From Thermoplasmatota archaeon (GTDB lineage: Archaea > Thermoplasmatota > E2 > DHVEG-1): a stretch of DNA of 64,000 bases. Positions 14,433-64,000 of this stretch are shown in pieces. The DNA lies in NCBI GenBank assembly GCA_041550515.1, contig JBFEOQ010000004.1, positions 1,190 through 65,189 of the forward strand, read 5' to 3'. The notes beneath the pieces were generated by a model, which was given only the letters and a program-made list of their open reading frames with translations, was not told the origin of the DNA and ran no database searches. The position numbers were made by a program, and so were the translations under genes. Position 1 is the first letter of the stretch, and each line of letters starts with the position of its first letter.

Positions 14433-14552
14433 TATAAATCACTTGGTATTAATTTTATAATTGATTTTTCAACTGATTTTAAACAAATTTTATTATTTAA
14501 CATTCGAACTTTAGATAGATGAAATTCAGAGTTTACAAAACATTCTTTATAT

Positions 14553-16526: not shown

Positions 16527-16544
16527 GGAAACCTGAATACAAAT

Positions 16545-17657: not shown

Positions 17658-17934
17658 TATAAACCTTTTTCTCGTTTTTATAAAAATAACTGTCTTTTTT
17701 ATTAATTAGAGCAACTTTCTTATTAATTCTTATCAAATATACGATTTTTTAGAATCACCTTATTATTATGAGATTTTTCCCAAAAAGTTTATAATATATT
17801 AAATATATATAGTTAATACTTTGGGAGGAGGCCTTTTGGTCCGGCAAATAGTAAAGGATATTATCCATAAAAAGAAAGGATTTACACCATATTTTAAGAG
17901 CGAATTATTTAAGTCATTTTTAAGAGGTTAAAAA

Positions 17935-18690: not shown

Positions 18691-20338
18691 AGTGAAATTG
18701 ATTGATGGCTACCCTGAATACATGAAGAAATCTATAAAACAGGTTGAGAAGAAACGTGAAAAAAATATGTCTGAACCTGTTAAACCAATGTCTCTTAAAG
18801 ACCGAGAAACGATGCTTACAAAATACCACCCAGATTATATGGAAGGGACTAAAAGAGAACTACGTGTCGGTATCGATAAAGGTCAATTGTTATACAACGG
18901 TCTGGTTGATCTCCTTGAAGCAAAACCCGTTTTAGATCCAAAAGATGTTGATCTTAGTAAAATCGATTATGATGTAGATTTGTTAATTATTGGTGGCGGT
19001 GGTGCTGGTACTGTTGCAGCATTATTTGCTTACGAATCTGGGGTGCTTTTAGACAAAATATTAATTGTTACTAAACTTCGTCATGGCGATGCCAATAGTA
19101 TGATGGCTCAGGGTGGCATTCAAGCAGCAGATCGTCCTGAAGACAACCCAGCTTTACATTATTTGGATATCTATGGTGGAGGGCATTTTACGAATAAACC
19201 TGAGCTTGCTCGTGCACTTGCACTTGATGCACCTGGAATAATTAAATGGCACGAGGAATTAGGAGTTATGTATGATCGCCATGAAGACGGTGAATTCCAA
19301 GAGTTATCTGGCGGTGGTACCTGTCGGAATCGTATGCACAGCTGCAAGGATTATTCTGGTATGGAAATTATGCGAAACATCCGGGATCAAGCTAGAAACT
19401 TGGAAATTCCTACTCTAGAGTTTTCTCCTGTTGCCGAGTTATTATTAGATGATAAAGGACAAGTTGCAGGTGGTATCGCATTCAATCTTGAAACATTTGA
19501 ATATTATGTAATACGCGCAAAAGCAACAATTCTTGCGACTGGTGGTAGTGGCAGATTACATTTAGCAAATTATCCAACAACAAACCACTATGGTGCCACT
19601 GGCGATGGATTAATTATGGCTTATCATGCAGGAGCAAATTTACTTGATTTAGATACAATTCAAATCCATCCAACAGGTGATGCATTTCCAGAACCTCTTG
19701 TTGGAATACTTTCAACAGAAAAAATCAGAGGATTAGGTGCAATACCAATAAACAAAAACGGTGATCCATTTGTTTTCCCACTTGAACCTCGTGATGTTGA
19801 GTCCGCATCTTTTATAAAAGAATGCAAAGAAAATCGTGGTATTGTTACACCAACAGGAATGCCAGGTGTGTGGCTTGATTCACCTATGATTAACATCATT
19901 CATGGTGAAGGAACAATAGAAACAAAACTAGCTGGTGAAGTTCGAAAGTTCAAGCGATTTGGAATCGATATGACAAAACAACCAATTTTGGTTTACCCTA
20001 CACTTCACTATCAGAATGGCGGAATTGAAATAAATGAAAAAACTGAGACAAGATTACCGGGATTGTTTGCAGCTGGAGAAGTTACAGGTGGCGTACATGG
20101 AAAAAACCGATTGATGGGAAATTCCCTGCTTGATTTCAATGTATTTGGTCGAAGATCTGGAATTTATGCGGCTAAATATATCAAAAAAGCTAAAGTTGGA
20201 AAATTAACACTTAATCATCTAGATAAATATAATAAAATGCTTGAGGAAGCAAAAATAAAACCAAAGAAAACAGCGCCGATAATTTTACCTGAATATCGTG
20301 GTGAAAAGACAATTGCTCGAGCATTGGATATATTCTAA
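18683..20338 (+). CDS. succinate dehydrogenase/fumarate reductase-type flavoprotein subunit (soluble)
   Basis: 551-aa ORF with the FAD motif LLIIGGGGAGTVAA, plus IQIHPTG and GLFAAGEVTGGVHGKNRLMGNSLLD. The track start is GTG 18683. The in-frame GTG at 18692 sits 8 nt after GGAGGTG and may be the real start. Confidence 0.8.
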   Translation: MLRVKLIDGYPEYMKKSIKQVEKKREKNMSEPVKPMSLKDRETMLTKYHPDYMEGTKRELRVGIDKGQLLYNGLVDLLEAKPVLDPKDVDLSKIDYDVDLLIIGGGGAGTVAALFAYESGVLLDKILIVTKLRHGDANSMMAQGGIQAADRPEDNPALHYLDIYGGGHFTNKPELARALALDAPGIIKWHEELGVMYDRHEDGEFQELSGGGTCRNRMHSCKDYSGMEIMRNIRDQARNLEIPTLEFSPVAELLLDDKGQVAGGIAFNLETFEYYVIRAKATILATGGSGRLHLANYPTTNHYGATGDGLIMAYHAGANLLDLDTIQIHPTGDAFPEPLVGILSTEKIRGLGAIPINKNGDPFVFPLEPRDVESASFIKECKENRGIVTPTGMPGVWLDSPMINIIHGEGTIETKLAGEVRKFKRFGIDMTKQPILVYPTLHYQNGGIEINEKTETRLPGLFAAGEVTGGVHGKNRLMGNSLLDFNVFGRRSGIYAAKYIKKAKVGKLTLNHLDKYNKMLEEAKIKPKKTAPIILPEYRGEKTIARALDIF

Positions 20339-20353
20339 AAATGGTGTAATAAA

Positions 20354-20614
20354 ATGATTGAAGTAAAAGACGACTGGTGTAAAGGATGCAACATCTGCAT
20401 AGATCGATGTCCCGTCGGTGCTTTGGAAGAATCTGATAGATTAAACAAAAAAGGGATTCGTCCACCTCAATTGAAAAAAGAAAATGAATGTAATTACTGC
20501 AGATACTGTGAGCTCATATGCCCAGATCTAGCACTGGCTGTAGTTGTAGATAAAGAAGTTAAAAAAGTTGAGAAAAAAATTCTACTAAGCCCGTTAGGAG
20601 GGAAAAAGAAATGA
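20354..20614 (+). CDS. korD: 2-oxoglutarate:ferredoxin oxidoreductase delta subunit (2x[4Fe-4S])
   Basis: 86 aa with CKGCNICIDRCP and CNYCRYCELICP. It is the first gene of a delta-alpha-beta-gamma operon. Confidence 0.75.
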   Translation: MIEVKDDWCKGCNICIDRCPVGALEESDRLNKKGIRPPQLKKENECNYCRYCELICPDLALAVVVDKEVKKVEKKILLSPLGGKKK

Positions 20615-21792
20615 AAGTTGAACGAGATCCTAAAAGGATACGCGAAGTTTTAGGAAAAAAAGTACAATTTATTCTAGGAGATATGGCCTGTGTTTATGGA
20701 GGACTTCTTGCAGGAGTCTCATTTTTTGGAGGATATCCAATAACTCCTGCGTCTGAAGTTGCTGAGGGAATGGCACGAAGGCTTCCAAGAATAGGTGGCA
20801 CATATATTCAGATGGAAGACGAAATTGGAAGTATTGCTGCAGTTATTGGTGCTGCATGGGGCGGGGCAAAATCAATGACAGCAACATCGGGTCCAGGTTT
20901 TTCTCTTATGATGGAAAACTATGGGTTTGCCTTTATGACTGAAACTCCTTGCGTAATAGTCAATGTTCAACGAACTGGCCCATCAACTGGACAACCAACA
21001 CTTGGAGCACAAGGTGATATGATGCAAGCTCGATGGGGGACACATGGTGATTATGAAGCCATTGCATTTGCACCAAGTACTGTTCAAGAATGTATGGATT
21101 TTACAATTGACGCATTTAATCTTTCAGAGAAATATCGCACCCCTACATTGGTAATGACTGATGGAGAAGTAGGACACCTTAGGGAGAGAATTGTTATTCC
21201 TGACGAAAAAGACTTGAAAATAATTGATAGAGTAACAGCAACAATTGATAAAAAGAAGTATATTCCATTCACTGAATCTCAAACTCGAAAAAGTAAGGTT
21301 CCTGATTTTGCAACTTTTGGTACAGGTTATCGTACATATGTTACAGGTCTTACTCATAACGAAAAAGGCTTTCCGGCAACGGATAAACAACCAGATCATG
21401 AACGACTTGTTAAAAGGATTACATCAAAAATCACTGATGATGCTGATAAACTTGTCATTGTAGAGACATTGAATCTTGATGATGCAGACATTGCTTTTGT
21501 AACATATGGTGCGACAGCTAGACCAGCGGAGTCAGCAATGGAAATAGGTAGAAAGAATGGTATAAAAGTTGGTCTTTTTCGTCTTAAACTTGTTTGGCCA
21601 TTCCCTGAAAAAGAGATAGCTAAACTGGCAAAAAAAGTAGATAAAATAATTGTGCCAGAAATGAACCTCGGTCAAATAGTCCATCCAGTTCGTGAGGCTG
21701 CTTGTGGTAATTGTGAAGTTATTTCAGCGCCAAAAATTGGTGGAGAAATGCACATTCCAAATGAACTTTTAAAATATCTGGAGGGAAAATAA
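20611..21792 (+). CDS. korA: 2-oxoglutarate:ferredoxin oxidoreductase alpha subunit
   Basis: 393 aa with GGYPITPASEV and MTATSGPGFSLM. The 2-oxoglutarate specificity is inferred from gene order and neighbourhood (Frd-like, SucCD), not proven. Confidence 0.8.
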   Translation: MKVERDPKRIREVLGKKVQFILGDMACVYGGLLAGVSFFGGYPITPASEVAEGMARRLPRIGGTYIQMEDEIGSIAAVIGAAWGGAKSMTATSGPGFSLMMENYGFAFMTETPCVIVNVQRTGPSTGQPTLGAQGDMMQARWGTHGDYEAIAFAPSTVQECMDFTIDAFNLSEKYRTPTLVMTDGEVGHLRERIVIPDEKDLKIIDRVTATIDKKKYIPFTESQTRKSKVPDFATFGTGYRTYVTGLTHNEKGFPATDKQPDHERLVKRITSKITDDADKLVIVETLNLDDADIAFVTYGATARPAESAMEIGRKNGIKVGLFRLKLVWPFPEKEIAKLAKKVDKIIVPEMNLGQIVHPVREAACGNCEVISAPKIGGEMHIPNELLKYLEGK

Positions 21793-21793
21793 G

Positions 21794-22684
21794 ATGGTAG
21801 AAATAAAAACCGCTGAGGAATTAAATAAAAAATTTCTCAGAGAGGGTATGTGGCCTACTATTTTCTGTAATGGTTGCGGCCATGGAGTGGTATTGGAATA
21901 CACTTTCTGGGCATTGGAAGAATTAGGTTGGGATATGAACAAAGTCATCTTTGCTTCAGGTATTGGATGTTCATCTAGGCTTCCGGGTTATATCAACGCA
22001 GATGGTTTGCATACAACACATGGAAGAGCAATTGCTTTTGCAACTGGTATAAAAGCAGCAAATCCTGATTTTAATATTATTGTTTTCACAGGTGATGGTG
22101 ATTGCTCAGGGATTGGTGGTAACCATTTTATTCATGCAGCCAGACGTAACATTGACATAACCGTTATTATGATTAATAATTTCATTTATGGAATGACCGG
22201 TGGTCAATTAGCACCAACAGCACCGCTTGGGAGTATTGCAACAACTGCTCCATATGGAAATATTGAGCATCCTTTTGATATATGTGAACTTGCAAAAGCC
22301 CTTGGTGCAAATTATGTAGCTAGATGGCCTGTTTCTCACCCGTATCAGCCTATAAAATCAGTAAAAGAAGGACTACAAAAGAAAGGTTTTTCCTTATTGG
22401 AGTTCCTTGCACCTTGCCCAACAGCATATGGACGACGAAACAAACTTGGAGATATCAAAAAACATTGGGCTTGGTATGACGATAACACCATCTTGATCGA
22501 GGATTATCAAAAAATTATGAACTATGGATCTGAAAAAGAAAAAGAACAAATAAAAGACAAAATGCAAATCGGTGTTTTCCAAGATATCCAGAAATCTGGA
22601 TTTTTTGAAGAATATGAAAAACTTGTGGATAGATTACAATCAAAAGAAAAAAAATCAGATAAAGCCAAAGGAGATAAAAAATGA
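21794..22684 (+). CDS. korB: 2-oxoglutarate:ferredoxin oxidoreductase beta subunit (TPP)
   Basis: 296 aa with FCNGCGHG and the TPP motif FTGDGDCSGIGGNH. Confidence 0.8.
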   Translation: MVEIKTAEELNKKFLREGMWPTIFCNGCGHGVVLEYTFWALEELGWDMNKVIFASGIGCSSRLPGYINADGLHTTHGRAIAFATGIKAANPDFNIIVFTGDGDCSGIGGNHFIHAARRNIDITVIMINNFIYGMTGGQLAPTAPLGSIATTAPYGNIEHPFDICELAKALGANYVARWPVSHPYQPIKSVKEGLQKKGFSLLEFLAPCPTAYGRRNKLGDIKKHWAWYDDNTILIEDYQKIMNYGSEKEKEQIKDKMQIGVFQDIQKSGFFEEYEKLVDRLQSKEKKSDKAKGDKK

Positions 22685-23223
22685 AAAAAGAAATTAGAAT
22701 CTGCGGTTTCGGAGGACAGGGAGTAATTCTTTCAGGTTTTATTATTGGAAAAGCCGCCTCGGTTTTTATGGATTATAACGCAGTACAGAGCCAATCTTAT
22801 GGGCCAGAAGCTCGTGGCGGAGCTGCTCGATCAGAAGTAATTGTATCTGATGAAAAAATTGGATATCCTCGGCCTCTTGGTGTTGATCTTCTTGTTGCTA
22901 TGTCACAGGAATCGTTTGATTCCTACCGTCATGATGTTACTAAGAATACCAAAATTGTTGTTGATCCAGATCTAGTAAAAAAACATGACATTGGTCAACC
23001 GGTTTACAAAGTTCATGCTCAACAAATAGCTGAAAGCCTGGGAAACAAAATTGTTACAAATATTGTAATGGTAGGAGCATCAATGGCGATATTTGGATTA
23101 TTAGATTTGGAAGCAGTCAAAAAATCTGTTCTTGATAGTGTCCCAAAAAGGTTTATTGATCTTAACGAAAAAGCTTTTGAAAAAGGAGTTGAGGCCGGGA
23201 AGAATGCCCTTAAAGACGTATAA
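22681..23223 (+). CDS. korG: 2-oxoglutarate:ferredoxin oxidoreductase gamma subunit
   Basis: 180 aa with the CGFGGQGVILSG motif. It has a 4-nt ATGA overlap with korB. Confidence 0.8.
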   Translation: MKKEIRICGFGGQGVILSGFIIGKAASVFMDYNAVQSQSYGPEARGGAARSEVIVSDEKIGYPRPLGVDLLVAMSQESFDSYRHDVTKNTKIVVDPDLVKKHDIGQPVYKVHAQQIAESLGNKIVTNIVMVGASMAIFGLLDLEAVKKSVLDSVPKRFIDLNEKAFEKGVEAGKNALKDV

Positions 23224-26200
23224 TAAGAAAATAGACCATGGTCTTGGTATTCCCCTAGAGGATGATTATTTCTATGATGAACCAGAAGAAATTATAGAAA
23301 ACAAAGAAGCACCACAACTTGAAAGTATAATCAAAACTTTAACTCAAAGAGCTGAAAAAGTAAAAAAACGTGTTATTGACACCGATGTTCTTATCGTAGG
23401 AGCCGGAATTTCTGGGATGCAAGCAGCACTTGACATTGCAGACAAGGGATATAAAGTTGTAATAATCGACAAAACATCAACTATTGGCGGAGCGATGGTA
23501 AAACTTGATAAAACATTTCCCACAAATGATTGTTCGATTTGTACAGCTGCACCTAAAATGGTTGAACTTTCACGTCATCCAAATATTGAACTTATCACAT
23601 ATGCAGGAATAAACAGTCTTGATGGTAAGCCTGGTAAATTCAAAGCAAGCATTTGGCGAAAAAGCAAATATGTTGATCCTGATAAATGTACAGGATGTGA
23701 TGACTGTGCAGAAGTTTGTCCGGTTGATGTTGTAAATCCTTTTGATGAAAAACTTTCAACAAGAAAAGCAATCTATATTGAATTTCCACAAGCTGTACCA
23801 ATTATCTACACAATCGATTATGACAACTGTATTGGTTGTGGTTCATGTGACCGAGTCTGCGAACCAGAAGCTATTTCATTTTTAGAAAAATCTGAAGATA
23901 TCCAGGTAAACGCCGGAAGTGTAATTCTTGCAACTGGCTTTGAACTATTTGAACCAATTGAAATGCGCAAGGAATATGGTTACGGAAAATATGACAATGT
24001 AATTACTGCGCTTCAATTCGAGAGAATTCTTTCATCATTTGGTCCTACTGAAGGAAAAGTTAAACGTCCATCAGATGCAAAAACGCCGAAGAGTATCGGT
24101 TGGATTCAATGTGTAGGATCGCGCAGTGAGCAACAAGGTTTTCCATATTGTTCACGAGTATGTTGTATGTATGCAACAAAAGAAGCATCAATTGCTAAAG
24201 AAGCAAACCCGAATATAGATATTAATATCTATTATATGGATATACGCGCGTATGGTAAAGACTTCCAGCAATACTATGATCATGCCAAAGACTTAGGAAT
24301 AAAATACATTCGCGGAAGACCTTCATCTGTTTATGAAAATAAGGATAAAAGCATCACTATTAAATACAAAGATACACTCACAGGGGAAGTAAAAGAAGAT
24401 ACAGTAGATATGCTTGTTTTATCAACTGCGATAAAACCAAATGAGGAAAACAAAAGACTAGGGGAAGCTCTTGGAATTGAAGTAGATGAAAATGGTTTCT
24501 TTAAACAACAAGACCTATTAACTGATCCAATTCAATCTTCCAGAGATGGAGTATTTCTTGCAGGTTGTATTCAAGGTCCAAAGGATATTCCTGATAGCGT
24601 ATCAATGGCTAGCGGGGCTGCAGCAAAAGCAGTAGCACCAATAAAGGATCATGAGAAACACATTGGTAAGGAATTTCCACCAGAAAAAAATGTTGCTGGT
24701 GAGAAACCTCGTATTGGTGTGTTTGTTTGTCATTGTGGTAAAAACATAGCAAATTATCTTGATGTTAAAAAGGTAACTGAGGAGACAAAAAAACTTCCAA
24801 ACGTTGAACATGCTGAGCACATTATGTTTGTTTGTTCTGAGGATAGCTGTAAAAAAATCAAGGAAGCAATTGAACAGAAAAAACTGAACAGAATTATTGT
24901 TGCTGCTTGCTCACCACGTACTCATGGTGGTCTATTTATGGATACTCTCATGGAGGCAGGTTTGAACAAGTATCTTTTTGAAATGGCAAACATCCGTAAT
25001 CATTGTTCATGGGTTCATTCAGATGATTGGGATGCAGCCACAGATAAAGCGATAAAGCTAGTTAGATCATCAGTTGCAAAATCAAGAGGACTGGAAGCAC
25101 TTTCAGAAGAAGAATTTTCAGTTTACCCTGCCACTTTAATTATTGGTGGCGGAATATCTGGAATGAAAGCTTCACTTGCCCTTGCTGATATGGGTATTAA
25201 ATCTATTATTATAGAAAAAGAAAAACAACTTGGTGGGAGACTCACAAATCTTCATTCAATGTTTCCATCTGATAAAAAAACTGAAGACATTCTTAACCCT
25301 ATAATTAACAAAATTAAAAAGAACAAGTTAATCTCGGTTATGACTGACTCAGAGCTTGACGAACTTGAAGGATACATTGGAAATTACAAAGGAAAAATCA
25401 AACAAAAAGGAAAAACCAAAGAAATTGAATTTGGAACAATAATAGTGGCAACAGGTTTTAGAGAAATTGATTTAAAAGGCAGATATGAGTATGGTAAAAA
25501 CGAAAACATACTTTCTCAAACTGAACTTGAAACAAAACTAAAAACTAACAAGTTAAAGGAACCAAAAAATGTAGTAATCATTAACTGTGCAGGCGCAATG
25601 GATGAAGAGCGCCCCTATTGTTGCAGAGTTGGTTGCGGGGTAGCTATAAAAAATGCAAAACTTATAAGCCAAAAATATCCGAAATCCAAAATTTACATGC
25701 TATATCGTGATATGAGAGTTTTTGGAAAAGAGGAAGAAGAATATTATGCTGATGTTTTAAAGAAACATCATGTAACAATGATTCGTTATCCAGGTGATAA
25801 AAAACCTGAGGTAATTCTTAATAAAAAAGATCCTAAAAAGGGTTCTGTATCTGTAATGGTTTATGATGATATTCTCAACGAAGAAATGATACTACCTGCT
25901 GATTTATTGGTTTTAACTGTGAACACTGAAGGCGGAGCAGAAACTGAGAAACTTAAAAATATGTTGAAAGTGCCTGTTGACTCTGCTGGTTTCTTTATAG
26001 AAACACATGCAAAAATCAAACCACTTGATTTCTCAACATCTGGTGTTTACATGTGCGGTGCAGCACATTATCCAAAAAATCTCGTTGATTCAATTGCACA
26101 AGCAGAGGGAGCTGCATCTCGTGCAGCAATTCCAATTGCTCAAGAAAGAATGAAAGGAGAAGGAATTGTCTCAGAGGTTATTGAAGATCTTTGTAGAGGC

Positions 26201-56015: not shown

Positions 56016-56900
56016 TTATATAAAAGAATTAACAATTGTATGAAAAATTATTCCAATGTTAATCATAAATATTGAAAACATTACAAGACCTAAAGATCGA
56101 CCAAGATTTACAGGTTTAAAGTTCTTTCTTATAGATATTTGACTATATAATAAAGATATCCCTCCAATTAATGAAAATATTAGAAATATGATACTATTAT
56201 CAAGAAGGAAAAACATCCAAATAATAGTGATAAATGTAGCTATTGCAAATAATAACCCAATTTTAACAAATTTTTCTCGACCAAAAAATACTGCAAAAGT
56301 TTGTGGATGAATTTTTATATCTCCTTCATAGTGTAAAATGTTTTCAGGGACATCCAATGTTAACTCCCAAAAAAATAATAAAAGAAATAATGCAAGTGGT
56401 ATGAAATTAATTGATGCAAAAGCAATCCATACAGCAACTGGTATTAAACCAGCACCTAAACCAAGTAATAAATTATTTTTATATTTAGAGGAGTAAATGG
56501 CTATAAGAACTATGCATATTATTTGTATCAAAGAACTGACAATGTTATAAAAACTAAACCACCATAAGAAGATTCCAAGTAAAATAAATATAAGTGAAAT
56601 AATTAATGCTATATTTTTTTTTATTCTTCCCGAAGGAAGTGGACGTTTTGGATTAACAATTTCATCTTCTTTTAAACCTACTATATCATTAAATACATAA
56701 ATGCCTACTATTGATGCCCAATAAGCAAAAGCCCATATTAATGTTTTAATTTGGAAAAATTCATCTAATGAACCATTTACCCAAAATATAGCTAACATAC
56801 CGGGAGTTAATCCTATAAAAAAGCATGCAAGCCACCAACCTGGTCGTAATACTTCGATATATGCTATGTTTTTGGTTTTGTTTTTTATCATTTTCATCAT
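56016..56900 (-). CDS. UbiA-family prenyltransferase (polytopic membrane protein)
   Basis: 294 aa and multi-TM. The first motif is NDIVGLKEDEI (the second Asp of NDxxDxxxD is replaced by Gly). The second acidic motif is LDVPENILHYEGD. Confidence 0.75.
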   Translation of the reverse strand: MMKMIKNKTKNIAYIEVLRPGWWLACFFIGLTPGMLAIFWVNGSLDEFFQIKTLIWAFAYWASIVGIYVFNDIVGLKEDEIVNPKRPLPSGRIKKNIALIISLIFILLGIFLWWFSFYNIVSSLIQIICIVLIAIYSSKYKNNLLLGLGAGLIPVAVWIAFASINFIPLALFLLLFFWELTLDVPENILHYEGDIKIHPQTFAVFFGREKFVKIGLLFAIATFITIIWMFFLLDNSIIFLIFSLIGGISLLYSQISIRKNFKPVNLGRSLGLVMFSIFMINIGIIFHTIVNSFI

Positions 56901-56994
56901 TTTATTACTTATTTAATTTCATAATATTGAGAATATTTTAAGACATAACAAAAAATATTAATAAATTTACGATTTTTTAAAATACAGAAGATGT

Positions 56995-57969
56995 CTATGG
57001 AATAGATAAAAAACCTGCATTGTATAAGAGTACTAAGCTTTGTCCAAATGTAACTAAAAGTGAAAAAGATAAGATTGCATAATATCCTCCAGTAAAATCT
57101 TGTTTTCTTAAAAAGTACCAATAAGAAAAAATTTCAGCAATAATTATTGGCCAGACGAAAAATAAGAAACTAGTGGTAATGATATAATTTAGTATACCCA
57201 TTAATACAATTATTGAGTTTGATATAATTACACAAGCCAATCCTAAATAAAAAACTTTTTTTTTCTCAAGAAATGTTGCTATTGTTCTTAATCCTTCTTT
57301 GATATCAGGTTCGTAGTCTATAATCGTTGTTGGAATGTATATTGCACCAACACCAAAAAAACCTAACAATCCCCATAAAATAGGAAATTCAGTTATTGGT
57401 TTTACTAAAATCCAACCTGCTAATGAACAAATCACACCACTGCCAAAGGCATTTGTAATAAAATCTAAACCAGGTCTCTCTTTAAATCTCATTGGTGGTG
57501 AAGAATATGAAATAGAAAGAATTATACAAATAGTAATAAGTATAACGAACCATAAAGAAATAAATAAAGCAGATAAGAATGCTAGGAAAAAGAGAAATAT
57601 TGATACAAATAAAACAGATTTTGGCTTTATTATACCTCCTATCAAAGGAAGATATTTTTTCCTCCTGCTATCAAAATCAGTATATCTGTCAAAATAATCA
57701 TTAAAAAGAATTGTTGCACCGCCTAAAAGAGGACCTATTGATATTATTCCAATTATAAACAAAAAAAACTCTTGATAAATATTATATACAGGGGAAGGAT
57801 CAGTGAGTAAAAAAACCTTTGCTATATATGTAGGATAAATCTTGTTAGATGCAAGTGACCAACCCATGTAAAATGGTAGAATTGAAACCCCCCAAAACAG
57901 AGGAGCCATTTGTTTTAAAAAATGTCGAATTATTAGAAATGGTGCAAGTATTGAATCATTATTATTCAT
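56995..57969 (-). CDS. UbiA-family prenyltransferase (polytopic membrane protein)
   Basis: 324 aa and multi-TM, with a canonical NDYFDRYTD first motif and DYEPD second motif. Confidence 0.75.
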   Translation of the reverse strand: MNNNDSILAPFLIIRHFLKQMAPLFWGVSILPFYMGWSLASNKIYPTYIAKVFLLTDPSPVYNIYQEFFLFIIGIISIGPLLGGATILFNDYFDRYTDFDSRRKKYLPLIGGIIKPKSVLFVSIFLFFLAFLSALFISLWFVILITICIILSISYSSPPMRFKERPGLDFITNAFGSGVICSLAGWILVKPITEFPILWGLLGFFGVGAIYIPTTIIDYEPDIKEGLRTIATFLEKKKVFYLGLACVIISNSIIVLMGILNYIITTSFLFFVWPIIIAEIFSYWYFLRKQDFTGGYYAILSFSLLVTFGQSLVLLYNAGFLSIP

Positions 57970-57992: not shown

Positions 57993-59294
57993 TTATAGAG
58001 ACTTGGCAGCAATATCAATTACATCCATTACTTTCATTTTGAAATCCTGCTCCATTTCTTTCATTTGTTCCTTTTTTATCTTAATAGCATTTCCTATCGA
58101 ACCTTTACAATTTGGACACGCAGATACAATAGTTTTTGCCCCTAAATCATAAGCTTCATTGATTTTCCTAATTGTAATATCTGTTGTTAAATCATAATTA
58201 ACAGCTTTTAAACCTCCACCACCACCGCAGCAGATACTATCCATACGATTATTAGGGAATTCAAGAATTTCATTAATACCAGGGATATTTTTTAATATAT
58301 AACGAGGAGCATCAAAAATACCCCTACCTTCATATTCAGATATTCTTCCTAATTCACAAGGATCATGATAAATAATTGGAAGATTTTTCTCATTAAATTC
58401 TTTTGTAAATTTTAATTTTCCATCTTCAATTGCTTTTGCAATCAATTCAGTTATATGTAAAAGTTCAAATTTGAAATTAGCGAATTTTTTATATTTTTTA
58501 ATAGCCCTATAACATCCAGGACACCCCGTTATTACCTTTGTTGCACCTCTTTTTTTAATTTGTTTTAAGTTATATTCTGCAATATCTTTAAAATTACTCC
58601 ATTGCCCTGACATAGTATTAATAGCACCACAACACATCTCATCTGTTCCTAATGTAGTAAAATCTATTTTGGCACTTGTAAGAATTTTTAAAGCATTCAA
58701 TAATGTTTGATACTCATGATAAGATGTCACACAACCAACAAAATATACAATATCTGCTTTTTTAGGGAGTTTATACTCATCACGATACCATTCATCTCTT
58801 TTTGATAAAGGTTCCATAAATGGATTCTTAAATTCTTTATTGGCAATGTTATTATACATATCAATTGTATTTTTTGGGGGTATAATTTTATTTTCAACCA
58901 TCCATTCTCTGATTTCTTCCCAATATTTATGAAAATCAATGTCAACATGACAAATTGTTTCACATCGGCTACAAAGTGTACATGTATATATTTTTGTCAT
59001 CGCTTCTTCAAGAGATATTTGTCCTCTACTGGTAAGGAAATCCGTTATCTTTTTTCCTAGTATCTTATCCAAAAAACTATCCTTAGCAATAAGATGCTTC
59101 AAAAGATATACTTTCCCTCTTGGAGTTAGAGATTCCCATCCTGTCTCTCTATATACAGGACAAACAGATTTACAATAACCACATTGCAAACAAGCGTATA
59201 CATCATCTAAATGAGGAGGCTTGTTTCGTACAAGGTTTTTCTTATCTATGCTTTTTGATTTTTTCTTTTCATCTTTTTTATTTCTTTTTCTCAT
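57993..59294 (-). CDS. Fe-S oxidoreductase, GlcF / HdrD-like (2x[4Fe-4S] plus two CCG domains), paralog 2
   Basis: 433 aa with CLQCGYCKSVCP and CTLCSRCETICH, and CCG motifs EMCCGAIN and SICCGGGGGLK. Confidence 0.85.
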   Translation of the reverse strand: MRKRNKKDEKKKSKSIDKKNLVRNKPPHLDDVYACLQCGYCKSVCPVYRETGWESLTPRGKVYLLKHLIAKDSFLDKILGKKITDFLTSRGQISLEEAMTKIYTCTLCSRCETICHVDIDFHKYWEEIREWMVENKIIPPKNTIDMYNNIANKEFKNPFMEPLSKRDEWYRDEYKLPKKADIVYFVGCVTSYHEYQTLLNALKILTSAKIDFTTLGTDEMCCGAINTMSGQWSNFKDIAEYNLKQIKKRGATKVITGCPGCYRAIKKYKKFANFKFELLHITELIAKAIEDGKLKFTKEFNEKNLPIIYHDPCELGRISEYEGRGIFDAPRYILKNIPGINEILEFPNNRMDSICCGGGGGLKAVNYDLTTDITIRKINEAYDLGAKTIVSACPNCKGSIGNAIKIKKEQMKEMEQDFKMKVMDVIDIAAKSL

Positions 59295-60846
59295 ATTTAT
59301 TTATCCTAATCTTATCCGCCGGCATTATTTGTTTTAATATAGCTAAAAAATTTAAGCCAAAATTCATAACAAAACCTGGAATAGGGATTCCAAAACGTGT
59401 TGAACTCTCTATTAGTTTTCCGGGATTCATTATATAATGAGGATCTATAGTGGATTTGATATCATCCATGACTAGAACGCCTTTACCATGTATTTTTTTT
59501 AGATTTCCACTAAAAAGAAGACCAAAACCACCAGGTCTTCCACCAACTTTGAATACTTCATCTGTTAATTTTTTTATTAATGCCATAGATGCCATATTTT
59601 TTATAAGTTTTTGTTCATTTGAAAGAGCATATGTCATAAATAACGCTGTATTTGGATCTGATATATAACCCACCACTGCTCCTTTCATCTTTAACTTTTT
59701 TAATATCTCTTTTGATCTTTTAGTCATGATAGTAAATTTTGATAAAGGACAGAATCCTTCTCCTACTATTAATCCTGGTCCAAGACGACGTGCTCTTGAT
59801 TCGAAAAATCGCTCATCCCATTCATGTTTTGCAAATTCTTTAGTTTCTTTTTTGCCACCATTTTTTATCATTATATCTTCTGCTTTTTGTTCCTCAAGAT
59901 CAATAATATTGCTATCTCCGCTAAAGATAATATTGACTACAGCTCCAATCTTTTGAGATTTTCTATCAAGCTTTTGTAATATATCATAGTGTGCGCCATC
60001 AGTAAATGCTATGTGATAAGGATTTATGTTTGATCGTGTTAGTTTATATATTGCTTTACTAGCGTCTTCTAGATTTGAAAAAACATATGATGTAGGTCGT
60101 ATTTCTAAAGGTGCAGGTAAAACTTTTAAAGTTACTTTTGTAATAATTCCCAATGTTCCTTCAGAGCCTACAAATAAATCTATTAGATTATAACCCGATG
60201 AATTATTTACTATTTTTTTATTACCTGTGTTAATAATACTTCCATCTGGTAAAACTACTTCTATTGACCGAATCAGTTTATCAATTCCGCCATATTTATA
60301 TGATCCAATTCCAACACCTCCAGTATTTATCCAACCACCAATAGTTGCTCCGGGGGCACTACTTGGATAAGCTCCAATAAGAAGGTTTTTACTTAATAGG
60401 GTGTCATAAAGATGTTTCCAATTCACTCCGGGTTCAACTGTTACATATAAGTTATCTTCATTTATCTCCAAAATCTCTTGCATACTACCCATATCTAAAA
60501 TAATGCCACCAAAAGCAGGAACTACTCCCCCAAATGCCCATGAAGAACCTCCTCTTGGTATAATCGGAACATTATTTTTAACAGCATATTTCATTATTTT
60601 TGACACATCTTCGACATTACGTGGCTTAACTACTATATCTGGAATTGTTTTAAATACAAGAGACATTTCTTTAGGTAATGGAGCTAAATCATGGCTGTAT
60701 AAGAGCCGATCAATGTTACTTTCACTGATATTACCCTCTCCGACTATATCTGCTAACTTTTTATAAATCTCTGAATTTGTAAATTGTTTTTTTGGAAAAT
60801 CGGAGTCATTATTCGTTTCATTTATTTTTTCACTCAATTCTATCAC
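59278..60846 (-). CDS. FAD-linked oxidase, GlcD family, paralog 2
   Basis: 522 aa with PRGGSSWAFGGVV and the C-terminal DPHYIMNPGK. It has a 17-nt overlap with the downstream HdrD-like gene. Confidence 0.85.
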   Translation of the reverse strand: MIELSEKINETNNDSDFPKKQFTNSEIYKKLADIVGEGNISESNIDRLLYSHDLAPLPKEMSLVFKTIPDIVVKPRNVEDVSKIMKYAVKNNVPIIPRGGSSWAFGGVVPAFGGIILDMGSMQEILEINEDNLYVTVEPGVNWKHLYDTLLSKNLLIGAYPSSAPGATIGGWINTGGVGIGSYKYGGIDKLIRSIEVVLPDGSIINTGNKKIVNNSSGYNLIDLFVGSEGTLGIITKVTLKVLPAPLEIRPTSYVFSNLEDASKAIYKLTRSNINPYHIAFTDGAHYDILQKLDRKSQKIGAVVNIIFSGDSNIIDLEEQKAEDIMIKNGGKKETKEFAKHEWDERFFESRARRLGPGLIVGEGFCPLSKFTIMTKRSKEILKKLKMKGAVVGYISDPNTALFMTYALSNEQKLIKNMASMALIKKLTDEVFKVGGRPGGFGLLFSGNLKKIHGKGVLVMDDIKSTIDPHYIMNPGKLIESSTRFGIPIPGFVMNFGLNFLAILKQIMPADKIRINKYEKKK

Positions 60847-60996: not shown

Positions 60997-61431
60997 TTAT
61001 TTATTGATTAAAGCTTTTTTCTCTTCAATTTCTTTCTTCATCCATTTCTCAAAATCTGGCCCAATTTTCATCAATTTATTTAACTCTGCATCTAAATTGT
61101 CAGAAGAAATTTTTAATATCCAACCTTCACCATATGGATCAGTATTACAAAGCGTAGGGTCATCTTCAACATCTTCATTAATCTCAGAAATCTCTCCACT
61201 TACTGGAGCATATAGTTTACCAGTCCATTTTCCACTACTCATTGTTCCAAATGGTTTATCCTGACTTACTTCATCGTCTTCTTCAAGTGTTACAATACGT
61301 TTAATTGTTCCAGCCAATTTTTGCGTAAAATCAGTTATACCAATTTTTACCTGGTCATCTTCAACTCGAGCCCACATATGCTCTTTGTGATAGTATAATC
61401 CTTCGGGAAATTCATATTCGTCTATTTTCAT
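60997..61431 (-). CDS. GcvH-like lipoyl carrier protein, divergent lipoylation motif
   Basis: 144 aa with HMW, IGITDFTQKLAG, GTMSSGKWTGKLYAPVSGEI and DPYGEGW. The lysine is aligned with the canonical ESVK lysine. Confidence 0.75.
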   Translation of the reverse strand: MKIDEYEFPEGLYYHKEHMWARVEDDQVKIGITDFTQKLAGTIKRIVTLEEDDEVSQDKPFGTMSSGKWTGKLYAPVSGEISEINEDVEDDPTLCNTDPYGEGWILKISSDNLDAELNKLMKIGPDFEKWMKKEIEEKKALINK

Positions 61432-61669: not shown

Positions 61670-63139
61670 ATGGATCTTTTATACTCTACAATTGTATTAT
61701 TGATTTTATCAATAATTTGGGCGGTAATAATTTTTCTAGTATTTAGGAGAATGATTGGAAAACAAACAAAAAAAGATAAAATAATGCTTTTTGGTGGTTT
61801 TCTTATTTTTGTGGGTTTAGCCGCTATTGTAATAGCAGGAACGATTACATTTGAGTATATTGAAAGTCCTAAATTTTGTGGAACATCTTGTCATGTTATG
61901 GAGCCTTTTTATAATTCTTTTAAGTTTCCAGGCAATAACCAAATGATGGATATTCATTTAAATGAAAAAATAAGTTGTTCCAACTGTCATAATAACCCTG
62001 GTATTGTTGGAACTATTGAAGGTTTTTTATCTGCTATTCCAGAGGCATATATATATTTTACAAATACTTATGATATTAATGATTTACACGGAGATATTTC
62101 ACGTGAAGCTTGTCTAAAATGTCATGAGGAAGGTATTGCTAAATTACCTGGAGAGATTAATGCATTAGATGATATTGTTGTTAATCCTCATGATGATGAA
62201 ACTAAGTGTGATGCATGTCACGATCCTCATGAAAATGGATTTGGTCTAACTCAATATGCTTGTCCTATTTGTCATGGAATTTATTTAGATAATTTTGAAA
62301 TTCGATTATTAAATCATTCTGAAAGAGTTAAATTAAATTGTGCGGATTGTCATAATAGAAAACATCCAGATAATGCAAAAATCTTTTTCTCTGAATATCC
62401 CTCACTTATAAATACTGATTTTTGCTCAGATTGTCACGTTGAAGAAATTGAAAGTCTTAATAGAGGAGTGCATAAATCAATTAGTTGTATTATCTGTCAT
62501 AATGAACATAAATCTTTGAGTATAAATTTTGATAAATGTAATGAACCTTGTCATAATCCACCTTCGGATCATAATAAGTTTACTTCAAATTGTATTATAT
62601 GTCATGATACTACAAGAATACATTCTATATCTACTTCTAGTGTTGAACACGATGTAACTTTCTCTGATATTGTATGTTCAACATGCCACAAATTGGAAAA
62701 TTCTGCATATGAATATAGTTTTACTCCCTCTTCTTTAGAAATTTATGGAGATAATGGATGTATTGACTGTCATCCGAATCATAATACTACATTTTATCCT
62801 CATATTATAATATCTCCATTCAATAATTGTAGCAGTTGCCATCCAACCTATAATACATCAGTTACAATACATGATCGTACAGCAACAAAATATCTTGGAT
62901 TTTTAAATATTACAAGCGATTTCTGTTCAGATTGCCATGAGAGTGAAGTTAAAAAATTTAATTTAGGGATACATTACGAATATGAATGTATTGACTGTCA
63001 TGAAGAACACTTAATCGTGAAGATAAATTTTGATAGCTGTAATAATCCTATATGTCATATTACTCCTTCCTATCATAACAATTATCTGAGAAATTGTTTA
63101 GATCCAATTTGTCATACTGATATTTCAAGTATTCATTAG
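61670..63139 (+). CDS. membrane-anchored multihaem cytochrome c
   Basis: 489 aa with two N-terminal hydrophobic helices. I count 13 canonical CxxCH motifs plus CGTSCH and CNEPCH (CX3CH) and CNNPICH and CLDPICH (CX4CH). Confidence 0.85.
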   Translation: MDLLYSTIVLLILSIIWAVIIFLVFRRMIGKQTKKDKIMLFGGFLIFVGLAAIVIAGTITFEYIESPKFCGTSCHVMEPFYNSFKFPGNNQMMDIHLNEKISCSNCHNNPGIVGTIEGFLSAIPEAYIYFTNTYDINDLHGDISREACLKCHEEGIAKLPGEINALDDIVVNPHDDETKCDACHDPHENGFGLTQYACPICHGIYLDNFEIRLLNHSERVKLNCADCHNRKHPDNAKIFFSEYPSLINTDFCSDCHVEEIESLNRGVHKSISCIICHNEHKSLSINFDKCNEPCHNPPSDHNKFTSNCIICHDTTRIHSISTSSVEHDVTFSDIVCSTCHKLENSAYEYSFTPSSLEIYGDNGCIDCHPNHNTTFYPHIIISPFNNCSSCHPTYNTSVTIHDRTATKYLGFLNITSDFCSDCHESEVKKFNLGIHYEYECIDCHEEHLIVKINFDSCNNPICHITPSYHNNYLRNCLDPICHTDISSIH

Positions 63140-63308
63140 TAAAAAATTACTTAAAAAGAGGAGTATAAAATTTGAAAAATAAAATATTATACAAAGAAAT
63201 AAACATTAGAAAACCAGTTGATAAAAAATTAAAATTTTTAAAGAAATTTTCAGGTATATTTAATATAGGTTGATATATTTCTTTTTAAAAATAGAATAGA
63301 AATGATAG

Positions 63309-64000
63309 ATGGCTATGGAAAAAGATATGAAATCAAAAAATAAGGAATTGAGAAAAAATTCAGAAAAAAATAATCTCTCAAAAAATGTAGATAATAATGA
63401 TATTAATAATAAACTAAAAAAAATTATACAATCGTATAATAAAATTCAAATTTATCATCCAATCACAGTTGTTGAAATATGGGCTTTTACAATAGTTCTA
63501 GGAGTCATGGTAATTTCAGGACTGCTGCTAATTAGAGATTGGCTTTTTTTAAATTTTGGAGTTTATGGTAGGGTATTTATTCCAACTCCAAAAATTACAT
63601 TAAATATACATATATGGTTTGGTTTTTTATTGATAATTTTGGGATTTTTTCATTTAGTTATTCATCTTTTATCAAAAAATAAAAAGGATATTTTACCAAA
63701 ACGAACATCTAATGATTTTAAGTCTTTTTTACACTCGGGCATGTATTTAATTGGACTTGCTCGACGTGAGACTTATGAGAAATCTATTAAATTCAATGGA
63801 AGACAACGAATTGTATATACTGCCCAGGTTTATATTATTGGTTTAACTATTATAACTGGATTTATTTTTTATATAAATTACATTTCAGATGACTTAGCAC
63901 TTGTTCATGTTATTCCAGCTGGTTTTACTATAATGGTTCTCTTATTTCATGTTTTAATTACAATTAGAAATCATGATTCAATTGCTTTAAAAGCTGCTTT
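63309..64000 (+). CDS. b-type cytochrome membrane subunit (FdnI / Ni-Fe hydrogenase cytochrome b family-like), 3' end beyond the window
   Basis: I translated the frame by hand from ATG 63309 to the window end without a stop (absent from the ORF track). After a Lys/Asn-rich N-terminus there are at least 4 hydrophobic helices with His in or near them (YHPITVVEIW, NIHIWFGFLLIILGFFHLVIH, VHVIPAGFTIMVLLFH). Confidence 0.6.
   Translation, partial: MAMEKDMKSKNKELRKNSEKNNLSKNVDNNDINNKLKKIIQSYNKIQIYHPITVVEIWAFTIVLGVMVISGLLLIRDWLFLNFGVYGRVFIPTPKITLNIHIWFGFLLIILGFFHLVIHLLSKNKKDILPKRTSNDFKSFLHSGMYLIGLARRETYEKSIKFNGRQRIVYTAQVYIIGLTIITGFIFYINYISDDLALVHVIPAGFTIMVLLFHVLITIRNHDSIALKAA

Follow-up and report, generated by a model that had tools for sequence, protein, structure and literature searches.

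What would a protein with 17 haem-binding motifs do in an archaeon of a group known for fermentation, and where would its electrons go? Few archaea are as widespread in marine and lake sediments as the MBG-D/Thermoprofundales, which genomic descriptions cast as organisms fermenting protein and further kinds of organic matter. In the main genomic paper on the group, the terms cytochrome, haem/heme and quinone have zero occurrences (PMC6461988). The window analyzed here, a 64,000-nucleotide stretch from an archaeon of this type, ends in a gene for such a protein, which we call MHC17, and in the first part of a second cytochrome gene.

Haem motifs, membrane base and haem chain of MHC17

The MHC17 gene (61670..63139, forward strand) encodes 489 amino acids and scores above the cut-offs of the Pfam families Cytochrome_C7 and c3_2. 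The open reading frame contains thirteen CxxCH motifs (C103, 148, 180, 198, 224, 252, 273, 308, 336, 364, 387, 419 and 440), two CX3CH motifs (C70, CGTSCH; C290, CNEPCH) and two CX4CH motifs (C457, CNNPICH; C476, CLDPICH), reproducing the count of thirteen canonical and four variant sites in a first-pass annotation of this DNA. All 34 cysteines are inside these 17 motifs, together with 17 of the 35 histidines, the other 18 being outside. This motif density is far above chance: a six-frame scan of the 1.83-Mb genome yields 7,935 open frames with a length of 50 aa or more, and only three of them contain six or more CxxCH motifs. MHC17 has 38 close homologues, and the haem count in its relatives reaches 28. 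The 17 motifs are kept in 21 of 21 aligned close-clade orthologues and 16 motifs in five distant ones; every motif Cys and His is retained among orthologues at an overall identity of 50–72%, which indicates purifying selection. Furthermore, thirteen non-motif histidines are invariant across 26 aligned MHC17 sequences, as expected for bis-His haems. Judged by these features, MHC17 appears to be a genuine archaeal, membrane-anchored multihaem c-type cytochrome with 17 predicted covalent haems, and we infer haem occupancy of the CX3CH and CX4CH sites from the conservation of the variant sites among the orthologues.

The N-terminus forms two putative transmembrane helices (residues ~4–27 and ~39–62; 61679..61855, forward strand) connected by the basic loop RRMIGKQTKKDK. 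Hydropathy peaks at residues 1–31 and 35–65 coincide with helices at residues 3–28 and 34–64 in the AF2 model (pLDDT about 70–78), and the positive-inside rule predicts that the N-terminus and the haem domain face outward and the loop inward. The structure models, with pLDDT of 47 and 60, are too poor for testing the haem chain. A NrfH/NapC-like module follows (residues 45–185; 61802..62224, forward strand), whose first site is CGTSCHVM, a CX3CHxM motif. The best NCBIfam match of this region is TIGR03153 (E 1.7e-15), at 57.2 bits against a cut-off of 134.2, and PF03264, for which precomputed matches exist on several orthologues, gave no match on MHC17 at E ≤ 0.1. Alignment to NrfH (2j7a_C) locates a one-residue Gly insertion in MHC17 (FC-TSCHIM versus FCGTSCHVM), and C70, G71, C74, H75 and M77 are invariant in the 26 sequences. 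Like the NrfH/NapC/NirT/CymA proteins (TIGR03153, PF03264; 2J7A chain C), MHC17 has an N-terminal helix, then a first haem site of the C..CHxM form and then three haems, but it differs from them by the extra residue in CGTSCH, an extra N-terminal helix, thirteen more haems and an obligate pairing with a cytochrome b. With a score below the cut-off and CX3CHxM in place of CxxCH at the first site, where the Met is nevertheless kept, MHC17 falls outside the NapC/NirT/NrfH family.

Beyond this module, residues 268–442 have their best PDB match in MtrA (6r2q_A, E 9e-8), and the DmsE-family model TIGR03508 matches at E 1.8e-8 and 34.2 bits, below its cut-off of 192.2; the relation to the MtrA/DmsE decahaem family thus appears to be one of resemblance, not membership. 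Taken from these alignments, the architecture of MHC17 is probably that of a NrfH/NapC-type four-haem base by the membrane carrying a 13-haem chain of MtrA/DmsE-like character. The earlier description of a membrane-anchored multihaem cytochrome c with two N-terminal helices and a NapC/NrfH-like first site therefore holds, after both the topology prediction and the homologue search that it proposed, with the NrfH likeness staying below the family cut-off.

The haem chain contains two related four-haem modules, copy A (62408..62632, forward strand; CSDCH, CIICH, CNEPCH, CIICH), which is kept in orthologues, and copy B (62909..63136, forward strand; CSDCH, CIDCH, CNNPICH, CLDPICH). Copy A (residues ~259–330) and copy B (residues ~433–489) share 51% identity over 76 aa (BLASTP E 2e-22), in agreement with the internal repeat seen at first pass, and their DNA has only moderate likeness. 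In 21 orthologues, copies A are 62% identical to one another and copies B 60%, compared with 48% between A and B within one protein; hence the duplication predates the MHC17 family, and part of the 13-haem chain seems to have arisen when a four-haem unit was duplicated long ago. The first-pass annotation had also proposed that the CX4CH sites of copy B arose from the CxxCH and CX3CH sites of copy A. Both CX4CH sites are present, at 457 and 476, but the orthologues reveal that the direction of change was partly misread. At site 457, most orthologues have CxxCH, one has CX3CH, and CX4CH is confined to MHC17 and its closest homologue; the insertion of two residues there is lineage-specific. At site 476, members of the close clade have CX4CH and those of the distant clade CxxCH.

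The cytochrome b partner and the surrounding island

Directly downstream of MHC17 lies a FdnI/HyaC-type cytochrome b gene, of which the window holds the 5' two-thirds (63309..64000, forward strand). It extends 292 bases beyond the window end and is complete on the contig at 327 aa (positions 4499–5482 of locus L001), which substantiates the earlier view of the partial gene as a b-type cytochrome. The protein scores 33.0–35.8 bits with PF01292 (cut-off 30.1), and a profile of ten orthologues has a single significant match in the PDB, FdnI (1kqf_C, E 1.2e-4), spanning residues 16–212 of 217 and including the C-terminal GK..W..K.HP.WY motif. Given this score and the near-full-length match, we assign it to the FdnI/HyaC/VhtC-type (PF01292) family on sequence grounds. 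It has four hydrophobic helices. A spacing of 14 residues separates H101 from H115 and likewise H200 from H214, and H101, H200 and H214 align with H57, H155 and H169 of FdnI. For the TM1 His of FdnI no equivalent is present, and the distant clade lacks H214; the invariant H115 could substitute for the TM1 His. The gene directly follows MHC17 in nine of nine archaeal loci, down to 32% identity of the multihaem protein, and MHC17 and the putatively dihaem cytochrome b most likely constitute a 'bc-type' membrane module.

Further downstream on the same contig, 3–8.5 kb from MHC17, lie ccmF, ccmE, ccmC, ccmB and ccmA, each identified by its family match, and the locus has no further ccm-like ORF. 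The CcmE C-terminus reads ...GCPSKY, the CxxxY form. The streamlined archaeal System I consists of CcmABCEF with CcmE of the CxxxY form and lacks CcmD/H/I (PMC9084895), and the island cluster appears to be of this archaeal type. Absence of a Ccm system had been named as a finding that would overturn the cytochrome reading, and its genes turn out to adjoin MHC17. A second contig, C75, abuts the end of this one: an independent assembly (L059) matches both at 99.8–99.9% with ~7 bp between them. C75 adds two cytochromes next to ccmA. First, a decahaem protein ~10 kb from MHC17 has ten CxxCH motifs and matches the MtrC/MtrF domain PF22113 in two stretches (85 bits, cut-off 30); its match to the equivalog-level TIGR03507 (E 4e-34, 118 bits) stays below the cut-off of 209. 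Second, a hexahaem protein ends in a Heimdall-CTERM archaeal sorting tail (27.5 bits, cut-off 24). With these two more cytochromes, one of them MtrC/OmcA-type, the suggestion of an extracellular electron conduit made at first pass gains support.

Upstream of MHC17, a divergent operon on the reverse strand contains five genes. The first encodes a GcvH-like lipoyl carrier (60997..61431; Pfam GCV_H, 118.7 bits) and adjoins MHC17 in loci L002, L003, L004, L006 and L008. It is followed by a GlcD-like FAD-linked oxidase/dehydrogenase (59278..60846; PF01565, PF02913), which scores 218 bits with TIGR00387 (glcD), below the cut-off, and is syntenic with the MHC17–cytochrome b pair even in the distant lineages L009 and L011. 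The third product is an HdrD/GlcF/TmcB-like Fe-S protein with two [4Fe-4S] motifs and two CCG domains (57993..59294; Pfam CCG, 101 bits; Fer4_8), whose NCBIfam matches, TfrB, LdhH, GlpC, TmcB, DsrK and HmcF, are all below cut-off (TmcB 76 bits against 735, HmcF 65 against 750). The last two are the UbiA prenyltransferases noticed at first pass, both of unassigned subfamily: UbiA_1 (324 aa; 56995..57969), whose best NCBIfam matches of 57–69 bits are far below the cut-offs and which adjoins ccm genes in L009, L010 and L011, and a second UbiA-family protein (294 aa; 56016..56900), which is syntenic in L002 and L004.

Distribution, haem and quinone pathways

MHC17 occurs in 6 of the 197 species genomes of the class, in line with the earlier remark that such a trait is uncommon in these archaea. 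CcmF orthologues of the island type are found in the same six genomes, an exact match within the family-level clade. Orthologues of the HdrD-like protein are confined to five of the 197, all MHC17 bearers, and UbiA_1 to the same five; in one bearer, the UbiA_1 and HdrD-like genes are ~815 kb from the cytochrome genes. The outer partners are not conserved, since within the class the decahaem is found in this genome alone and the hexahaem in two genomes.

The search for maturation, haem and quinone genes proposed in the first-pass annotation thus succeeded for maturation and failed for the other two. HemB and all orthologues of the hem/ahb cluster of the relative G059 were not found in this 88.6%-complete assembly, and its one AhbD-like gene falls in a paralogue family that 73 of the 197 genomes possess, with or without cytochromes; haem synthesis genes are present in three cytochrome-bearing relatives. 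For quinones, MqnA/D (PF02621) is absent and MenA never exceeds the cut-off in this genome and the five other bearers, and the earlier label 'quinone-linked' thus finds no support. By these MqnA/D and MenA searches the six bearers show no known quinone pathway, and the usual substrate of NrfH- and FdnI-type proteins appears to be missing.

Probable extracellular electron transfer and its alternatives

From the gene content, motifs, conservation, synteny and co-occurrence observed here, we infer a b–c complex, an outward flow and an external acceptor: MHC17 and its cytochrome b are probably the bc-type membrane module of an extracellular-electron-transfer island delivering electrons to insoluble or external acceptors. 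Reducing equivalents of cytoplasmic dehydrogenases would be the source, and the step from cytoplasm to membrane might use a prenylated carrier or direct docking on cytochrome b. The two b haems would then take the electrons across the membrane, and the c haems of MHC17 would lead them along the outer face to acceptors such as a partner cell, humics or Fe(III)/Mn(IV) minerals. The island would be self-contained, comprising ccmABCEF, the exported hexahaem and decahaem, the GlcD-like flavoprotein, the HdrD-like Fe-S protein, the lipoyl carrier and two UbiA proteins.

FdnI/HyaC-type cytochromes b normally conduct electrons inward, from the outer to the inner face (1KQF), and the cytochrome b here, by its homology in the PDB profile search, might do the same. 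The haem chain might take electrons from Fe(II), reduced humics, a syntrophic partner or a cathode, and cytochrome b might pass them to the HdrD-like protein and to Hdr/fumarate-reducing systems; HdrD-like proteins are indeed reductases in HdrDE, DsrMK and Tmc, to which the family matches point. However, terminal reduction is the best-known role of MtrC/OmcA-type cytochromes, and the linked GlcD-like flavoprotein is of a dehydrogenase type that is usually an electron donor, so that, with the direction not fixed by sequence, we consider such uptake fairly unlikely. About as unlikely is a role of MHC17 as NrfH/NapC-like membrane donor to a surface-bound reductase. The candidate reductase is the hexahaem, which has an NrfA/c554-like region, and it would act on nitrite, sulfite, tetrathionate or similar rather than on minerals. 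For the base module, no NCBIfam model matches better than the NrfH equivalog, and the hexahaem has matches to Pfam Cytochrom_C552, the family of NrfA (40 bits, cut-off 24.1), and to Cytochrome_C554; the G093 island contains the hexahaem as well, with 69% identity. Yet it is found in only two of the six MHC17 genomes, its sequence lacks the CxxCK active-site motif and an MtrC/OmcA-type cytochrome adjoins it, and NrfH-type donors need only four haems, against the 17 of MHC17 and up to 28 in its relatives.

It is very improbable that the island is a non-functional relic, acquired horizontally by a species that cannot make haem and whose cytochromes stay unmatured. The missing hem/ahb genes fit this idea, as do the single-contig relative G054, which has no HemB, UbiA_1 or HdrD-like gene, and the patchy distribution, with two same-genus genomes that lack the island. 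On the other hand, the island frames are all intact, the motifs are under purifying selection and the genes recur in the second assembly at 99.8–99.9% identity, and one 10-kb haem cluster is easily missed at this completeness. Bacterial contamination of the bin is scarcely credible, although most members of the NapC/NrfH, MtrA and MtrC/OmcA families come from bacteria and decahaem homologues 60–70% identical occur in MAGs labelled Chloroflexota, Planctomycetota and others, because MHC17 sits on a 71.8-kb contig with archaeal Hdr and lipoylation genes, its orthologues, always beside cytochrome b, share the same flanks on two Thermoplasmatales chromosomes (CP070798.1 and CP070712.1) and in other Thermoplasmatota MAGs, CcmE and the hexahaem tail have archaeal forms, C75 fits the genome in composition (GC 0.30, tetranucleotide r 0.96) and bacterial matches to MHC17 are only 21–28% identical; the archaeal host assumed at first pass thus withstands the binning-error objection.

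The MHC17–cytochrome b pair fits the bc-type modules of extracellular electron transfer as an architectural class and not as a homology family. In ANME-2a/b/c, Mco joins a VhtC-like, PF01292-family archaeal cytochrome b to a large cytochrome of 7–11 haems, has archaeal Ccm genes alongside and has been proposed to serve extracellular electron transfer at the membrane (Chadwick et al. 2022, PMC9012536). The likeness is one of gene architecture: MHC17 has 17 haems and an NrfH-like CX3CHxM base, its host is a non-methane-cycling Thermoplasmatota of the MBG-D type, no methanophenazine/quinone pathway is evident here, and GlcD/HdrD-like, lipoyl-carrier and UbiA genes are linked. In Geobacter sulfurreducens, CbcL and CbcBA, which are needed for extracellular respiration, have a dihaem quinone-oxidoreductase-like cytochrome b fused or next to an outward multihaem c of 7 or 9 haems (bioRxiv 10.1101/2021.04.15.440034). 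They resemble our pair in architecture but are bacterial, periplasmic and menaquinone-dependent, and CbcA is anchored by a C-terminal helix in place of the two N-terminal helices and NrfH-type module of MHC17. With MtrCAB of Shewanella the island shares the MtrA-like stretch (6R2Q) and a nearby MtrC/OmcA-type decahaem; it differs in that the scores are below family cut-offs, the wire is fused to a membrane-anchored base and there is no MtrB-type porin in the island, the archaeon having no outer membrane. The Desulfovibrio Hmc/Tmc complexes (16-haem HmcA, 1H29/2E84; TmcABCD) likewise combine a large multihaem c, predicted here to face outward, with a cytochrome b in the membrane and an HdrD-like CCG protein on the cytoplasmic side, and weak matches to HmcA, TmcB and HmcF exist, all far below cut-offs. 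Nonetheless, their cytochrome b (HmcE/TmcC) is NarI-type instead of FdnI-type (PF01292), they have an NrfD-like subunit that is absent here, and their HdrD-like subunit is encoded in one operon, whereas here it lies in the divergent operon with the GlcD-like flavoprotein; the cytochrome b type and this gene arrangement place the island outside Hmc/Tmc.

A bolder extension, which we hold to be doubtful, is that the island encodes a complete undescribed respiratory chain working without a known quinone, from the GlcD-like and HdrD-like proteins and the lipoyl carrier through cytochrome b and MHC17 to the exterior. The link would be a new UbiA-made prenylated carrier or docking of the HdrD-like protein as in Tmc/Hmc, and a subset of MBG-D would respire minerals or partners and not only ferment.

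The MHC17 family itself offers two natural experiments, namely a haem site that is CxxCH, CX3CH or CX4CH depending on the orthologue, and an NrfH-type first haem with an invariant one-residue insertion. The co-occurrence of HdrD-like, GlcD-like and UbiA proteins without a known quinone raises the question of what couples cytoplasmic dehydrogenases to outward cytochromes. Altogether, the locus suggests that a few members of this sediment archaeal group can exchange electrons with the outside of the cell. If this is true, a conserved, horizontally mobile island would let some MBG-D dump or take up electrons extracellularly, and the role of MBG-D in iron, manganese, humic and syntrophic cycling would have to be modelled differently.

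Architecture of the multihaem cytochrome and its family

The membrane-anchored c-type cytochrome MHC17 (window 61670-63139, plus strand; 489 aa) contains, as the first-pass annotation had proposed, 13 CxxCH motifs and four variant sites, namely two CX3CH (C70, CGTSCH; C290, CNEPCH) and two CX4CH (C457, CNNPICH; C476, CLDPICH), each numbered by the first Cys of its motif. All of its 34 Cys residues lie inside these 17 motifs, and 18 His residues lie outside them. This motif richness is not due to chance, since, over all 1.83 Mb of the genome read in six frames, only three frames have at least six CxxCH motifs. Rfam and tRNA scans of the 64-kb window gave no matches. The two N-terminal helices noticed at first reading were located at approximately residues 4-27 and 39-62, both by hydropathy and in an AlphaFold2 model from 26 aligned sequences, of which they are the only confident part (mean pLDDT 47, pTM 0.27; the model is unusable as a whole). 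A basic loop, RRMIGKQTKKDK, connects the helices, and the positive-inside rule predicts that the haem domain lies outside the cell.

The internal repeat noticed at first reading is real: its copies A and B, with four haem motifs each, are 51% identical over 76 aa (E 2e-22), and their DNA is only moderately similar. Among orthologues, the identity is 62% between A copies and 60% between B copies, higher than the 48% between A and B within one protein, which indicates that the duplication is older than the family.

Residues 45-185 match NrfH (TIGR03153, E 1.7e-15) and residues 251-394 match the DmsE decahaem family (E 1.8e-8), both in NCBIfam and both well under cut-off, so that by their own thresholds MHC17 falls outside the NrfH and MtrA/DmsE families. 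The best solved relative of the MHC17 profile was chain 6r2q_A (333 aa; E 9e-8, residues 268-442), which is labelled 'cystathionine beta-synthase' in its entry and which we take to be MtrA of the MtrCAB complex; weaker profile matches were to NrfH, NrfA and the 16-haem HmcA. Given the NrfH match at the base and the MtrA/DmsE-like matches beyond it, MHC17 would function as an MtrA-like wire joined to a membrane base of the NrfH/CymA type.

Among 5.8 billion proteins searched, 38 were close homologues (35-72% identity), most of them ~460-500 aa long and a few longer; below these, E drops from 1e-65 to 1e-22. In the alignment of 26 sequences, the motif Cys and His are invariant at all sites except 290 and 364, and 13 non-motif His are likewise invariant. 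Seventeen motifs are present in 21 of 21 close members and 16 in all five distant ones, while the longer variants contain 20, 21, 25 and 28 motifs and likewise have no Cys outside them; judged from these sequences, the family forms a modular haem chain.

The first site has the form CGT[FS]CHxM in the close family, and CX3CHxM is kept in every member. Compared with the NrfH of Desulfovibrio (2J7A chain C; FC-TSCHIM), MHC17 has a one-residue Gly insertion (FCGTSCHVM). Among 146 cluster representatives (P0055-P0200), which match MHC17 mostly via its N-terminal module, the first such site is CX3CHxM in 31 and CxxCHxM in 76; the insertion in the NrfH-type first site is thus spread wider than the MHC17 family. 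The distant clade has lost site 290, which the close clade keeps as CX3CH. At site 457, most orthologues have CxxCH and one has CX3CH; CX4CH is confined to the present protein and its nearest homologue. At site 476, the close clade has CX4CH and the distant one CxxCH. The first-pass annotation held that the CxxCH and CX3CH sites of the first copy have become CX4CH in the second; this is right for the pairing of the sites, but sites 457 and 476 have had different histories, as their distribution among orthologues shows. Both CX3CH and CX4CH sites carry haem in other cytochromes, such as the CX4CH of tetrahaem cytochrome c3, and System I is able to mature them.

Cytochrome b, ccm genes and continuation on a second contig

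The gene directly 3' of MHC17, partial in the window and read there as a cytochrome b, is complete on the contig (C4, of which the window covers 1190-65189), encodes 327 aa and matches PF01292 above the Pfam cut-off. A profile of ten orthologues had FdnI (1kqf_C) as its sole match (E 1.2e-4), nearly over the full length and including a C-terminal GK..W..K.HP.WY motif. The protein has four hydrophobic helices, with H101 and H115 on one and H200 and H214 on another, 14 residues apart within each pair. H101, H200 and H214 align with the FdnI ligands H57, H155 and H169, whereas the TM1 histidine of FdnI has no counterpart, and the invariant H115 may stand in for it. The two hydrophilic ends of the protein are predicted to face the cytoplasm. 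All orthologues share the membrane core, and a C-terminal helical domain of ~60 residues is conserved in the close clade and at the MHC17 locus L008. The N-terminal extensions of the cytochrome b orthologues (L005 12092-14317, plus strand, and others) are very variable, of low complexity and Lys/Glu-rich, with ~45 aa here and up to ~400 aa in the relative G093, where the extension also holds a small Cys-rich motif. An AlphaFold2 model of the cytochrome b (pLDDT 60), too poor for use, gave nothing under E 1 in a Foldseek search against the PDB.

Past the cytochrome b, the minus strand carries a CBS-domain gene, ccmF (688 aa), ccmE (128 aa), ccmC, ccmB and ccmA; the maturation system on which the first-pass annotation had made its reading depend is therefore encoded downstream of MHC17 on the same contig. 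The CBS-pair protein (183 aa; L001 5608-6159 in the C4 end region, minus strand), between cytochrome b and ccmF, may regulate the island or act as its nucleotide sensor. The ccmE product terminates in GCPSKY. Streamlined archaeal System I has a CxxxY CcmE (PMC9084895), and the C4 cluster is a system of this kind.

C4 stops 158 bp past the ccmA start. In the relative G059, the gene adjoining ccmA encodes 466 aa, and its homologue in this genome stands first among the genes of the 6-kb contig C75. An independent NCBI assembly (GCA_041562115.1; L059) matches C75 1-5013 at 99.8% and C4 69699-71693 at 99.9%, with a gap of ~7 bp between the two matches. Since this assembly spans both contigs, C75 continues the C4 island. 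The terminal 82 bp of C4 (L001 11695-11776) have no match in L059, which passes straight into C75, and are probably an assembly-end artefact or a strain variant.

C75 (L054) adds two cytochromes to the island. The protein encoded ahead of them (490 aa; L054 77-1549, plus strand) has a signal or anchor, an outer domain rich in Asn, a single C-terminal helix and a charged, coiled tail; it is 49% identical to the ccmA-adjacent protein of G059, and no family match was found for it. One of the two cytochromes is a hexahaem (465 aa; L054 1710-3107, minus strand), which has a signal peptide and a region like NrfA/c554; CGDSMLPCH and CGGTNDAGCH in it are possible haem sites with long spacers. Its C-terminal tail, PGFEFIAFIITLGIVFIIYKRRKI, matches the archaeal Heimdall-CTERM sorting domain of NCBIfam (27.5 bits, cut-off 24), and an orthologue with 69% identity lies inside the G093 island. 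The other is an MtrC/OmcA-type decahaem cytochrome (760 aa; L054 3412-5712, plus strand) with an N-terminal anchor and MtrC/MtrF domains (PF22113, 85 bits, cut-off 30; OmcA/MtrC TIGR03507, E 4e-34, under cut-off). Its homologues number more than 1,000, many of them with 60-70% identity, in MAGs labelled Anaerolineae/Caldilineaceae (Chloroflexota), Planctomycetes (Planctomycetota), Gammaproteobacteria and Bathyarchaeota. Such identity across differently labelled MAGs points to horizontal spread, and the gene looks like a widely exchanged single-gene module. Mis-binning of its contig, suspected because the gene is absent from all other genomes of the class, was dropped once the C4-C75 junction had been shown in L059.

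Distribution of the island and supply of haem and quinone

When one genome per species, from 185,579 species, was scanned for the pattern, ten archaeal MHC17 loci came up: five orthologues (49-56% identity) in Thermoplasmatales/Thermoplasmatota MAGs, two of them in records titled 'chromosome' (CP070798.1, CP070712.1), one fragment in a MAG labelled Nanohaloarchaea, and four distant members (32-39%) in an uncultured archaeon, a Thermoplasmata MAG and a 'Methanobacteriota' MAG. The cytochrome b gene is directly 3' of MHC17 in nine of the nine archaeal loci analysed, and the recurrent neighbours are ccm genes and genes for GcvH-like, GlcD-like FAD oxidase, HdrD-like CCG and UbiA proteins; at locus L011, MHC17, cytochrome b, FAD oxidase, CCG, UbiA and ccmABCE lie in this order on a single strand. 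These archaeal orthologues and shared neighbourhoods, together with bacterial matches of just 21-28% identity, exclude bacterial contamination of the contig.

Among 197 species genomes of the class, MHC17 occurs in six, all of one family, and two genomes of the same genus are without it. A close type of CcmF (58-63% identity) occurs in the same six, and a distant CcmF in 34 genomes of three other families. Five of the six have UbiA_1 (window 56995-57969), and the same five have the HdrD-like protein (window 57993-59294). The hexahaem cytochrome is present in two of the 197 and the MtrC-like decahaem in this genome only. In G093, the UbiA_1 and HdrD-like genes are ~815 kb away from the cytochrome genes, so that the co-occurrence goes beyond adjacency. 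UbiA_1 is directly beside ccm genes in distant archaea (L009, L010 and L011). The two divergent UbiA prenyltransferases (window 56016-57969, minus strand) fit no characterised subfamily, and may produce an unknown lipid-soluble carrier or modify a haem. The single-contig genome G054 (CP070798.1; locus L003) has MHC17, cytochrome b and ccmF intact and is without HemB, UbiA_1 and the HdrD-like gene, its GlcD-like match covering only about half the length; the island there may be in decay, or the organism may scavenge haem.

Neither the futalosine marker PF02621 nor MenA above cut-off was found in this genome, the five other MHC17 bearers and the two genus mates, while controls worked; the substrate normally used by NrfH- and FdnI-type proteins is thus unaccounted for. 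HemB is absent from this assembly (107 contigs, 88.6% complete, ~11% missing), G054 and G092, and present in G057, G059 and G093. In G059, a ten-gene cluster (L065) can be read, by position, length and family matches, as ahbD, ahbA, ahbB, sirC, hemA, hemB, hemL, hemC, cobA-hemD and ahbC; this incomplete assembly yielded no orthologues of the ten. Two HemB homologues looked up as same-species candidates (P0326, P0331) belong to other assemblies, and PF17805, the AhbA/B ligand domain, had no match in the genome. Contig C21 (L053 being its stretch 6000-24000) encodes an AhbD-like radical-SAM/SPASM protein (472 aa with a 116-residue N-terminal extension; L053 8067-9485, minus strand; 333 bits, cut-off 500) and, 2 kb away, a 348-aa protein with two NirDL-like HTH domains (L053 11405-12451, minus strand). 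We dropped this pair as proof of haem synthesis because the AhbD-like paralogue, of 470-490 aa, occurs in 73 of the 197 genomes whether or not they have cytochromes, and most of these 73 are without c-type cytochromes or HemB.

Proposed electron path and novelty of the island

By its anatomy, the island fits among the 'bc-type' membrane modules for which a role in extracellular electron transfer has been proposed or shown, such as Mco of ANME-2, a VhtC-like cytochrome b with a 7-11-haem cytochrome (PMC9012536), and the bacterial counterparts CbcL and CbcBA of Geobacter (bioRxiv 10.1101/2021.04.15.440034). Electrons would cross the membrane via the two b haems of cytochrome b, the outer of which would exchange electrons with the NrfH-like base of MHC17; the other MHC17 haems would form a chain on the outer face, handing electrons to the hexahaem and MtrC-like decahaem cytochromes. 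On the cytoplasmic side, the probable partner is the GlcD-like/HdrD-like enzyme of the same phyletic pattern, which would be coupled via a carrier from the island UbiA enzymes or would dock directly. This whole path, with its direction, acceptor and haem occupancy, is inferred from homology, synteny and co-occurrence, and we hold it reasonably probable. The same haem chain could instead serve inward electron uptake, which we regard as unlikely, and MHC17 could act, in a reading we rank next and hold quite unlikely, as electron donor for a surface reductase. That the island is a relic is highly improbable.

One MHC17 orthologue is labelled 'NapC/NirT family cytochrome c' at NCBI. Cytochromes c in Thermoplasmatales single-cell genomes were mentioned in passing by Kletzin et al. 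(PMC4429474), and the main genomic paper on MBG-D (PMC6461988) leaves cytochromes, haem and quinones unmentioned; in the open-access literature, we found no description of this island and nothing specific on multihaem cytochromes in MBG-D/Thermoprofundales. The architecture of the island is familiar, and its host group is new. New in MHC17 is the fusion of an NrfH-like base with a wire, with CX3CHxM as the first site, and new for the island are the lack of a known quinone and the linkage to genes for HdrD-like, lipoyl-carrier and UbiA proteins.
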